DNA of 64,000 bases from an uncultured Methanosarcinales archaeon. Lineage in GTDB: Archaea; Halobacteriota; Methanosarcinia; Methanotrichales; Methanotrichaceae. Positions 30,342 through 33,143 of the stretch are shown here, one piece after another. The translations under genes and the position numbers were made by a program. Location of the stretch: positions 1-64,000 of the forward strand of contig CAWJKV010000015.1 of assembly GCA_963843555.1 (NCBI GenBank), given 5' to 3'. The notes beneath the pieces are model-generated. The model searched no databases, was not told where the DNA came from, and worked only from the letters and a program-made list of their open reading frames with translations. Position 1 is the first letter of the stretch; each line of letters begins with the position of its first letter.

Positions 30342-30803
30342 CTAACTGCAGGGCAGCCAGTTCGGGCTAATAAAACCTATAGTGCTGTTGCTCCAGAGCA
30401 TAATGAACTTCTCGATGCTGAATACGCCCGTCAGATCCTCAGTGGCGAGGCCGTAGACGGCATGGCGGCCTGATGCACCCGGCATCACATCTCTGGACTG
30501 CCAGGCGATGTGGGCTTTGCCGACGACATTGGAATTCATATTGACTTCCAGGGAGCCGTTGCCTCTGCTATTGTCATTTCCGTTATTGGAGGTGTTAAAA
30601 GATCGGCTCACAACCTCCGTTACCTTGTCCAGATGCTCGAAATCAGTGTAGGACTCGGTGACACTCGCACCGGCATCGTAGTTCTTGATGCAGAGTGTAT
30701 TTTCTGTGTCCATATTATTCAAGCCCTGATAGAATGAGGCAGGCATATCTGCAGCGGCAAGGCTGATCAGGATAAAGATAATAGACAATGCAATCGGCTT
30801 CAT
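30342..30803 (-). CDS. Hypothetical secreted protein
   Basis: Signal peptide; EDLTGVFSIEKFI C-terminal pattern. Confidence 0.75.
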   Translation of the reverse strand: MKPIALSIIFILISLAAADMPASFYQGLNNMDTENTLCIKNYDAGASVTESYTDFEHLDKVTEVVSRSFNTSNNGNDNSRGNGSLEVNMNSNVVGKAHIAWQSRDVMPGASGRHAVYGLATEDLTGVFSIEKFIMLWSNSTIGFISPNWLPCS

Positions 30804-31226: not shown

Positions 31227-31540
31227 CGGTCGAGACATAGCGTAGATAACGGGTTGGATCCCATGGCGCCGGTGCCTGGAGAGGAGATCTGAGAACGATT
31301 TCAAAATGTCAAAGCGCACTGACGAGCTCCTAAACGGATTTCTAACTGGCTCAGCAGAGTGCCAGCCCTGCATCGTAGAGGCCTTTCGCAATAGGAAGTG
31401 ATCGAATGAAATGCCCACGATCCTCAGGAGGGCTTATACGTGGCGGACGAAGATCGAGATGCTTTGACATCATTAACTCGATTTACATACGGAACAAACA
31501 CGGCTTAACATTGAAACTCTATATTTAGTCTGCAGCTTAA

Positions 31541-31820
31541 CCGCCGTCGCTTGGCCGGCCGCGGCCTTGAGCGGCGCCCCCAACCATAGCGCGGGAGGCC
31601 CGCAGGCCGACTCGCGGTACCCCGGAAGAATGTGCGGATGCTGTCCTTGACCGCATTAGACAGGTCCATCTGCAGTTGAATGACACTAGCAAATCTTCCA
31701 ATGAGGCGTTTAAAAAAAAACATGCTACCTCTTCCGGGGTTCCGCGCGGTGTTACGCGCTGGGGCAACGGGGCCCACTCCAGGCCGTGGCGGCCCCCTTA
31801 ACCCCGCGCGGCCGCGGGGG
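31541..31820 (+). ncRNA. Candidate structured non-coding RNA of unknown family
   Basis: Very GC-rich arms with long-range pairing (31558-31571/31777-31790; 31588-31593/31755-31760; 31613-31629/31730-31746) and internal hairpins. G-U pairs mostly favour the + strand. Confidence 0.55.
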
Positions 31821-31967
31821 ACAAACTACGAAGTCTTGCCCTTCATCCTTGAACGTGTTTGAGAAGGCACCTGACGAAGTGTGCATCCGAACAAATGCCA
31901 CGCCATCCAATTTTAAATGCGAAAAGTGCTGGAAAAACCCGAAAAAGTATTGATAGTCCCGCTCAAT

Positions 31968-33143
31968 TTACTTCGTCGAGACTATCTTTATCACATCCCC
32001 ATCCTTCAGCTCGTGCTTCTCTCCCAGGCGCATCTTGGTCTTGGCATCGATGGCAAAGAGGAAGCTCTCACCGATATCAGAGTGTACCCGAAACGCCAGG
32101 TCCCGGGCCGTGCTGCCCCGCTTCATGAGGAAGGCGTCAGGCAGTATCACTCCCTTGCGGTCTGTGAACTTTCCCTCATCCTCCACGGGATAGAGGACGA
32201 TGTAGTCCAATAGCTCGAATATGGCCCGGTTGATGCACTCTTGCACCCCCGTTCCGCCATACTGCTTCATGAGCGCCCTGATCTTCTCCAGGCCCGCCGT
32301 CTGGGCAGCGCTGAGCTGGCCCTTGACCACAAAGTCAGGGTCGCCTGGGCGGTAGCTGATCAGGCCAGCCTTCTCTGCCATGCGCAGAGCAATCTCCGCG
32401 GCTCCGCTTACAGGTATCACCAGCTCTTCCTTCAGGGCCAAAAGCCTTAAAACATTCTCCGGAGGCGCGACATCCATCTTGTTAGCCGCCAGGATCATGG
32501 GCTTGCTGTACTCGCGGAGGAGCATGGCGAACCTCTTCACATCCACATCGTTCCAGCTTCCCAGATCCTTCTTCATCTCAGTCAGAGCGCGCCGGATTTG
32601 GTTATCCGAGACCCCTGCGCCTGCCATCTGGTCTATGAGAACCTGCTCGGGCTTGCCTCCTATGCCCTTATAATTCCTCATCAGCTTCTCCCAGTTGCGT
32701 TTGAGGATGCCGTTGAGCCACATGCTGATCTCGTACTCCAAAAACTTGACATCTGAGACGGGATCGTAGTTGCCCGTTCCGACCGGATTCCCTTCCGCAT
32801 CCGTGCCGCCCGAGGCGTCCAGCACATGAATGACGGCCTCCGCCACCCTCAGTGCGTCCAGGAACTCATTGCCCAGGCCTTTTCCGAGGTGCGCATCGGG
32901 AACCAGCCCGGCCACGTCGATCAACTCGATGGCGATGAAACGCACGCCGTCCTTGCACTTTCCGCAGCCCTTCTCGATGCCGAGGTCCCTGCATGGACAG
33001 GGCACGCGCACGTAGGAGACACCGTGATTGGCATCTATGGTTGTAAACGGATAGTTGGCAATATCCACATCTACCAGGGTCGCTGCCTTGAAAAAAGTGG
33101 ATTTGCCAGAGTTCGGCTTTCCAGCCAGCCCTATGGAGAGCAT
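31968..33143 (-). CDS. ychF: Redox-regulated ATPase YchF (Obg family)
   Basis: GKPNSGKST, YPFTTI, DVAGLV, NKMD, C-terminal TGS domain. Confidence 0.95.
   Translation of the reverse strand: MLSIGLAGKPNSGKSTFFKAATLVDVDIANYPFTTIDANHGVSYVRVPCPCRDLGIEKGCGKCKDGVRFIAIELIDVAGLVPDAHLGKGLGNEFLDALRVAEAVIHVLDASGGTDAEGNPVGTGNYDPVSDVKFLEYEISMWLNGILKRNWEKLMRNYKGIGGKPEQVLIDQMAGAGVSDNQIRRALTEMKKDLGSWNDVDVKRFAMLLREYSKPMILAANKMDVAPPENVLRLLALKEELVIPVSGAAEIALRMAEKAGLISYRPGDPDFVVKGQLSAAQTAGLEKIRALMKQYGGTGVQECINRAIFELLDYIVLYPVEDEGKFTDRKGVILPDAFLMKRGSTARDLAFRVHSDIGESFLFAIDAKTKMRLGEKHELKDGDVIKIVSTK

Follow-up and report, generated by a model that had tools for sequence, protein, structure and literature searches.

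In bacterial genomes, REP and BIME repeats occur as single units, inverted dimers and clusters, the same layout that we describe below, according to the accessible portions of PMC6006769 and PMC3733652. The same portions report that CGTC-type REPs occur without a dedicated transposase, and for the Archaea those of PMC6006769 report only the IS200-type subclass 1.1. From another direction, the accessible portion of PMC12288879 on ISPpu9 shows that an IS110 element can move a neighbouring module. No repeat of such a kind was found for Methanothrix or Methanosaeta in the literature searched, a scope outside which ISfinder, subscription papers and supplements may hold a mini-IS or repeat.

In this study, we analyse a strongly paired stretch at positions 31541-31820 of a window, that is, of the whole stretch of DNA under analysis, 64,000 nucleotides in length (G000:C15:1-64000, G000 being the genome to which it belongs). 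An initial annotation had put this stretch forward as a novel structured archaeal ncRNA, with a non-autonomous ssDNA-type element as its fallback. The ncRNA is contradicted both by homologs that lack compensatory changes and by many scattered copies; the fallback is the better reading of the two, with the qualification that the element is not a classical MITE, no target-site duplication having been found. We consider it probable, at about 0.62, that the stretch is an inverted pair of a ~90-bp GC-rich unit, here called unit U, and likely a non-coding, non-autonomous mobile DNA element built like the bacterial REP/BIME (REPIN) repeats, not an RNA gene. The locus is made up as follows.

31407..31412, + strand: TGAAAC-like core (here TGAAAT), start point of a mini-IS110; the same core stands before the left end of autonomous IS110 copies and of other mini copies with unrelated upstream flanks.
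31413..31495, + strand: module F, a decayed non-autonomous mini-IS110, its left end (~55 bp) fused to its right end, by profile match to IS110 ends.
31496..31524, + strand: module P, a linker in which ATTGAAAC occupies 31510-31517; it is likely a decayed remnant of the 3' half of a CRISPR repeat and holds a TATA-like site.
31525..31632, + strand: module L, unit U in forward orientation, with a GGCC-loop-GGCC hairpin (31597-31608), the conserved core GACTCGCGG and a purine-rich tail; 40 matches in G000.
31633..31727, no strand assigned: module M, a variable inner spacer (the hairpins A and B of the initial annotation); 65% mean identity.
31728..31850, - strand: module R, an inverted variant of unit U, with a GCGCG-loop-CGCGC hairpin and a terminal CCCCGCG hairpin (31802-31819); 27 matches in G000.
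31846..31905, + strand: module T, a semi-conserved tail (profile T); in other copies a second decayed mini-IS110 comes next.
31912..31926, + strand: remnant of a second IS110 right end, a short direct repeat with the end of F, judged from the alignment and too short to score.
31968..33143, - strand: Obg/YchF-type GTPase gene (Pfam YGR210-like_G4, MMR_HSR1, TGS), ending ~40 bp from the element.

Elsewhere in the window, positions 30342-30803 of the minus strand hold a gene of 153 aa that matches no Pfam entry and has a hydrophobic N-terminus, and by eye a similar gene stands directly after the GTPase gene in loci L181 and L182.

The pairings originally proposed for the stretch are present in the sequence. 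The long-range helix 31558-31571/31777-31790 has 12 Watson-Crick pairs, one G-T pair and one mismatch, 31587-31593 pairs with 31755-31761, and 31613-31629 pairs with 31730-31746 at 16 of 17 positions; the GGCC hairpin, the TAGCA/TGCTA stem and the 3' hairpin of CCCCGCG are likewise where they had been placed. The plus strand of the 290-nt stretch folds at -138.7 kcal/mol (z -3.37, with 0 of 200 shuffles as good) and the minus strand at -147.3 kcal/mol (z -3.58). Since the minus strand folds at least as well as the plus strand, the plus-strand preference that had been read into the pairs does not hold, and the fold is beyond chance without picking a strand. In line with the initial annotation, which had recognised no RNA family, the Rfam search gave no gathering-level match in the window and none at E<=10 within 31541-31820; the matches at E<=10 are chance matches only, all outside the element, and a search for tRNA and tmRNA found none. 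The SRP helix-8 and RNase P P4 motifs, previously reported to be lacking, are absent from the whole window, and the true SRP RNA gene sits on another contig, where an array of units lies ~1.8 kb from it (C3:25393-25707 and C3:27546-27954) with no sequence likeness seen between the two. An HDV-like ribozyme fold was considered and set aside by eye, having no partner for P1.

A reading of the stretch as a unique RNA gene fails on copy number. Profiles built from the left arm (L, 31525-31632), the middle (M) and the right arm (R, 31728-31850) match G000 40, 23 and 27 times, respectively, with 21 doublets of L and R and 40 clusters in all, essentially every one between called genes, and the stretch is therefore a member of a dispersed repeat family. 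A pattern search for the exact core found 29 occurrences in G000; of 58 further genomes in the genus 25 carry it, and there was none in other genera (0/46 other genomes of the family and 0/196 genomes of other families, 0/242 together), while the reversed core, used as a control, gave no match throughout. High counts of the core are limited to six genomes, G079 (49), G030 (34), G000 (29), G009 (25), G077 (23) and G027 (20). A scan of the sequence collection returned 77 loci, 74 of them titled Methanothrix, Methanosaeta, Methanotrichaceae or Methanosarcinales and the remaining three bearing bacterial titles and likely misbinned; the unit was also found in 4 viral and 89 metagenome loci, and in four DNA runs many related copies pile up on L and R. 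The viral contigs with single units (L116-L119) also carry terminase or ParB-like genes, and in L116/L117 a start codon with a ribosome-binding-like site comes right after the end of a hybrid unit.

When reverse-complemented, R aligns to L, and hybrids that join an R-type start to an L-type hairpin occur in L104, L117 and L122, from which it follows that both arms are versions of one ~90-bp unit U. This unit consists of a variable GC-rich leader, a short hairpin, the conserved core and a purine-rich tail, and is found singly, as an inverted heterodimer around a ~95-bp spacer, as a hybrid and in tandem arrays; 63 of 207 distinct clusters are a single L, and the rest are mostly L-M-R doublets, truncated doublets and tandem arrays. 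Mean pairwise identity among 16 doublets of G000 is 81% for L, 76% for R and 65% for M, and the closest two doublets are only 86.5% identical, ruling out a recent burst. Of 216 units, 203 have an intact GGCC stem, over 41 different loops in all, a count inflated by the many loci collected by this motif, and the ratio of 29 exact cores to 40 L matches in G000 is a less biased figure. The fold of a single unit is no stronger than that of shuffled sequence (z -1.15 to +0.57). The spacer M was rejected as a guide to its own insertion site, since it shows no excess match to its own flanks (longest match 9.2 bases, against 8.7 for foreign flanks, and driven by tandem copies). A second subfamily (L015, L029, L083) has a ~245-bp tandem period and a TATA-like TTAATATATC ~60-70 bp upstream of a degenerate unit, and to judge from that string its copies could be transcribed.

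Covariation and pairing were assessed on a set of doublets, 54 of them distinct. Pairing of an L arm with the R arm of its own copy is not stronger than with the R arm of a different copy (-92.1 vs -91.8 kcal/mol, p=0.29), nor is the match of the inner 12 bases closer in cis than in trans (p=0.47), and compensatory changes are found in 17 of 3153 long-range cells; the comparison of homologs for such changes, which the initial annotation had itself named as a possible refutation, goes against it. A paired ATAAG/CTTAT block in two copies was rejected as compensatory, mismatched combinations being equally common. Departures from Watson-Crick pairing comprise 108 G-T and 138 A-C, and since selection on a plus-strand RNA would favour G-T, there is no sign of such selection. 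The minus strand is lower in RNA energy in 49 of the 54 copies, and the mean z-scores of the two strands are equal (-2.6 and -2.5; 20 copies, 12 shuffles each). Neither the proposed kissing loop nor the TATA box before L is a feature of the family, for CATT and AATG co-occur in 1 of 54 copies, and a TATA-like string is seen in 3 of 54. The long rod is a by-product of inverted doubling, without sign of selection as an RNA fold. As to position, clusters are enriched between convergent genes (16/40, against 135/715 long intergenic gaps, by heuristic gene calls), and those in co-directional gaps face either way (9 vs 8).

The history of the site can be followed through the neighbouring GTPase gene, by which orthologous sites were located. 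Over 30 of the 53 orthologous GTPase loci, only G000 and G079 have the doublet. G027 carries F alone at this site, with ~430 bp between two right-end copies missing, a state equally compatible with a doublet gained elsewhere and with one removed here by deletion between repeats. At other pairs of filled and empty sites the ends vary. Between G000 C12 and L104/L066 the left part is inverted, with a hybrid unit at the junction, and the IS left end is the precise starting point of the insertion in L093. The unit has been gained, lost and inverted among related genomes without target-site duplication, flanking direct repeats measuring 4.70 as compared with 4.76 between unrelated copies (23 clusters).

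Part of the element derives from IS110. The profile of module F matches the first 50-56 bp of IS110 elements (L083, L317-L323), and stand-alone mini-IS110s of ~85 bp, with the left end fused to the right end, are found in L369, L370, L372 and L374 and at C18:109064 of G000; such copies occur across the genus, some of them in genomes without the unit core, and start after a TGAAAC-like core with unrelated upstream flanks. Module F shares these properties, its left and right ends being homologous to those of autonomous IS110 and its start lying at the target core. In a survey of 118 distinct doublets an IS left end stands upstream in 14/107 and a right end upstream in 20/107, while 20/109 have a right end on the downstream side, its distance nearly constant; some IS110 part lies beside 36/98, both a left end upstream and a right end downstream in 4/98, and reversed controls gave 0. 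G000 holds broken IS110 genes only, and related genes with intact frames are present in G005 and G009. The left end of autonomous IS110 is non-coding and folded, with a loop that matches its own target, and is a putative bridge RNA. For the IS110 family at L083 1100-2800, L317-L325, L330, L360 and L375 the left-end fold has a z-score of -4.75, and the predicted target loop matches the element's own left flank, which is ATTGAAAC in L083 and L318-L321, CCCTAAAC in L325, CTGCGGAAAC in L330 and AAAAAAC in L375. ATTGAAAC is also the 3' end of local CRISPR repeats, and the IS110 copy of L083 lies inside a CRISPR array.

Module P has 11 exact bases in common with the CRISPR repeat of L029 in three G000 copies, F splits repeat-like sequence in L099/L170, and 4 of 183 loci have a unit no more than 230 bp away from CRISPR repeats. 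In L169 and L171 (both G022) there are tandem blocks of a leader, a mini CRISPR array of 2-3 spacers and a repeat unit, with no cas-sized ORF seen nearby. Genes for family A DNA polymerase, unusual for archaea, adjoin units in L094 (247-2133), L083 (3242-4303) and L278, and at two of those loci they also adjoin CRISPR repeats. A mini-IS200, with its left-end hairpin fused to its right-end hairpin, is inserted in the tail module downstream of R in L230.

Toxin-antitoxin (TA) genes are frequent neighbours of the units. Of the hicB matches in G000, 9/18 lie within 600 bp of a unit, against 46/881 small genes (p 9e-8), and in five relatives 10 of 30 fetched hicB loci (from 59 matches) are near a unit, 4 of them bracketed on both sides. 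Neighbouring clusters within 3.5 kb of each other are in direct orientation in 34 of 36 cases, and the segments between units carry a match to a TA-family Pfam entry (HicA, HicB/UPF0150, ParE, PIN, TumE or MazE) in 20 of 38, a nucleotidyltransferase in one more (21 in all) and mini CRISPR arrays in 3/38; the TA-linked loci are related, and these counts overstate their independence. Neither the orientation of the cargo nor its distance from the unit is fixed, which speaks against a role of the unit as operator or promoter.

A search for the enzyme that might act on these sites gave mainly negative results. No reverse transcriptase or TnpB was found in G000, an assembly 82% complete; among 59 genomes none had an integron integrase over the cut-off, which no control genome passed either, and none had an IS91-type Y2 transposase, the control being equally blank. 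No unit lies near the three tyrosine recombinase loci of G000, and among 20 such loci from relatives there was one weak match (13.8 bits). RAYT/REPtron was not found: of 109 Y1 matches, 41 loci were examined and three had a unit nearby, all of them IS200-like with their own ends, and ORFs of the unit-bearing loci gave no other Y1 match. One of these IS200-like loci (L122/L225), and a ParE gene with it, is enclosed by two single units in direct repeat. IS200 TnpA is thus the only HUH Y1-type enzyme found, and IS200 ends were rejected as the source of unit U, because the ends of 40 TnpA loci match the unit profiles at E>=1.8 only, bar one locus that holds a unit, and short motif likenesses are by eye only.

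How far can other explanations account for these data? Action as RNA, either as a multi-copy structured ncRNA or as a 3'-end stabilising hairpin in read-through transcripts, would suit the strong fold on both strands, the enrichment downstream of convergent genes and the retention of the element at the same site in a second species (L175), but we regard it as distinctly improbable, given the lack of covariation, the excess of A-C over G-T departures, the lower energy of the minus strand at equal z-scores, the failure of both promoter and kissing loop to be conserved, the variable and modular architecture, and the absence of the element from the same site in 28 of 30 orthologous loci. REPs are reported to influence mRNA stability, and the element may do so too as a side function. 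A MITE of the classical type, bounded by terminal inverted repeats and target-site duplications, would likewise be dispersed and non-coding with long imperfect inverted repeats; the inverted repeats here are internal, however, the ends are not constant, one half can stand without the other and the direct repeats at the flanks do not exceed those of unrelated copies in length, and the chance that this description is correct is very slight.

A more inclusive role for IS110 would make the whole family passive cargo of IS110-derived composites and the copies without IS ends their decayed remains. The recurrence of IS ends beside doublets with blank reversed controls, the insertion that starts exactly at an IS left end in L093, the mini-IS found alone in G027 and the intact frames in G005 and G009 all point in this direction, yet no more than 4 of 98 doublets combine a left end upstream with a right end downstream, IS ends are mostly missing from the single units of viral contigs and of the second subfamily, and mini-IS copies occur in genomes without the unit core; we think it improbable that the family as a whole arose in this way. 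Unlikely, though less so, is a dedicated integron-like cassette system that stores and shuffles TA and defence genes, with unit U as its recombination site and the recombinase elsewhere. The hicB proximity in G000 and its relatives, the direct orientation of neighbouring clusters and the TA matches and mini CRISPR arrays between units are what such a system would give. Simple tandem duplication and a shared tolerance of insertion hot spots yield the same pattern, however, most clusters are isolated, the loci are not independent, the cargo takes either orientation at variable distance, and no integrase came over the cut-off. The boxes of attC sites follow the consensus R''/R' = RYYYAAC/GTTRRRY, and a box-like pair is seen in 14 of 54 doublets, where it is unpaired in the consensus fold, so that a consistent pair of attC type is absent. 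A broader and still speculative version, to which we give a small but appreciable chance, is that unit U is the recognition site of an undescribed archaeal cassette system in which a putative recombinase or HUH nuclease would capture, duplicate and shuffle TA genes and mini CRISPR arrays, while IS110 bridge-RNA recombinases would carry modules as a whole to new sites; if true, it would be an integron-like platform for defence genes using neither attC nor IntI.

We return to the preferred reading, an inverted pair of REP-like units. It is favoured by arms that are better conserved than the spacer between them and by units that often bracket TA genes or mini CRISPR arrays in direct orientation. 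Against it stand the search beside the units, which found neither a RAYT nor another dedicated enzyme, IS200 ends with no significant likeness to the unit, single units that are longer than REPs and fold no better than shuffles, the lack of a clear GTAG/GGAG guide at the hairpin foot and, at 20-49 per genome, a copy number low for REPs. Under this reading the short hairpin, conserved core and tail would form a protein-recognition site on single-stranded DNA. The most plausible agent is an HUH Y1-type nuclease acting in trans; through nicking and rejoining at such sites it would multiply the units, and the DNA between them would be duplicated, deleted or inverted. The long rod follows from inverted doubling. 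For copies bounded by mini-IS110, such as the present one, a second route may exist in which an IS110 bridge-RNA recombinase acting in trans moves the doublet as cargo into TGAAAC-like sites. In our own judgement an HUH Y1-type enzyme in trans, as for REPs, deserves a little less than half of the weight; recombination or conversion between copies, which could do much without any dedicated enzyme, somewhat less than a third; and IS110 hitch-hiking, which would account for the copies bounded by F and for no more than a part of the others, about a quarter. The IS110 route has against it that 62 of 98 doublets lack any IS110 part and that G000 has only broken IS110 genes. Since no two doublets in G000 are near-identical, any present-day mobility is putative.

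Among described systems, the PATEs and SMRs of Haloquadratum walsbyi resemble this family, as far as the accessible part of PMC3119063 goes, in being archaeal, transposase-free, palindromic and heterogeneous, in causing no target duplication, in being nested with other small mobile repeats and in losing their core by repeat-mediated deletion. They differ in that PATE palindromes resemble IS605/IS200 ends, to which the unit here has no significant match, and in that this unit forms inverted doublets and arrays. ISPpu9 and MITEPpu9, in the accessible part of PMC12288879, likewise combine IS110 ends with palindromic repeats and have a non-coding module between IS-end-like boxes that is movable in trans; there, however, REPs are the insertion target of the IS, an sRNA gene makes up the module and circles were shown by experiment, whereas here a mini-IS flanks the doublet, the target is a TGAAAC-like core and movement in trans is putative. 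Integron attC arrays and CALINs, as covered by the accessible part of PMC9668308, are similar in having directly repeated hairpin sites with small genes between them, many of these TA, with no integrase nearby; here there are no consistent R''/R' boxes and no single long bottom-strand hairpin per site, and the score of 0/59 genomes with IntI over the cut-off is to be read with the facts that no control passed it and that CALINs lack IntI by definition.

The closest likeness is to REP, BIME and REPIN repeats, which in the accessible portions of the sources likewise consist of intergenic GC-rich hairpin units. There, too, the units stand alone, pair as inverted heterodimers around a spacer or form tandem clusters that include flanking DNA; they favour the 3' ends of genes, persist within a single lineage and are associated with IS110-family elements. 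By eye, CGTC stands before the first hairpin of L and GGAG before the GGCC hairpin, with a different register in R and in a unit of ~90 bp. The differences from these repeats, to the same extent of the sources, are the archaeal host, the unit of ~90 bp as against 20-40 in REPs, the lack of a RAYT/REPtron or clear guide tetranucleotide, the 20-49 copies and the strong TA link. The family thus has the multi-copy extragenic palindromic unit and the singles, inverted dimers and tandem clusters of REPs, and no cognate RAYT (TnpA-REP) flanked by the repeat was found among the 41 Y1 loci examined. What is new here is an archaeal family of the REP/BIME kind, set apart from REPs proper by the cognate RAYT and by unit size, and not a new ncRNA; it also illustrates that a rod which folds strongly and has no Rfam match can turn out to be a doublet of inverted repeats instead of an RNA gene. 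REP/BIME mosaics and RAYT enzymes have been described from bacteria, and an archaeal family with such a layout can be used to ask how palindromic repeats that are orphans, having no cognate transposase, are able to spread. Being TA-linked and expanded in six related genomes to 20-49 copies, it can equally be used to ask by what means archaeal TA modules move.
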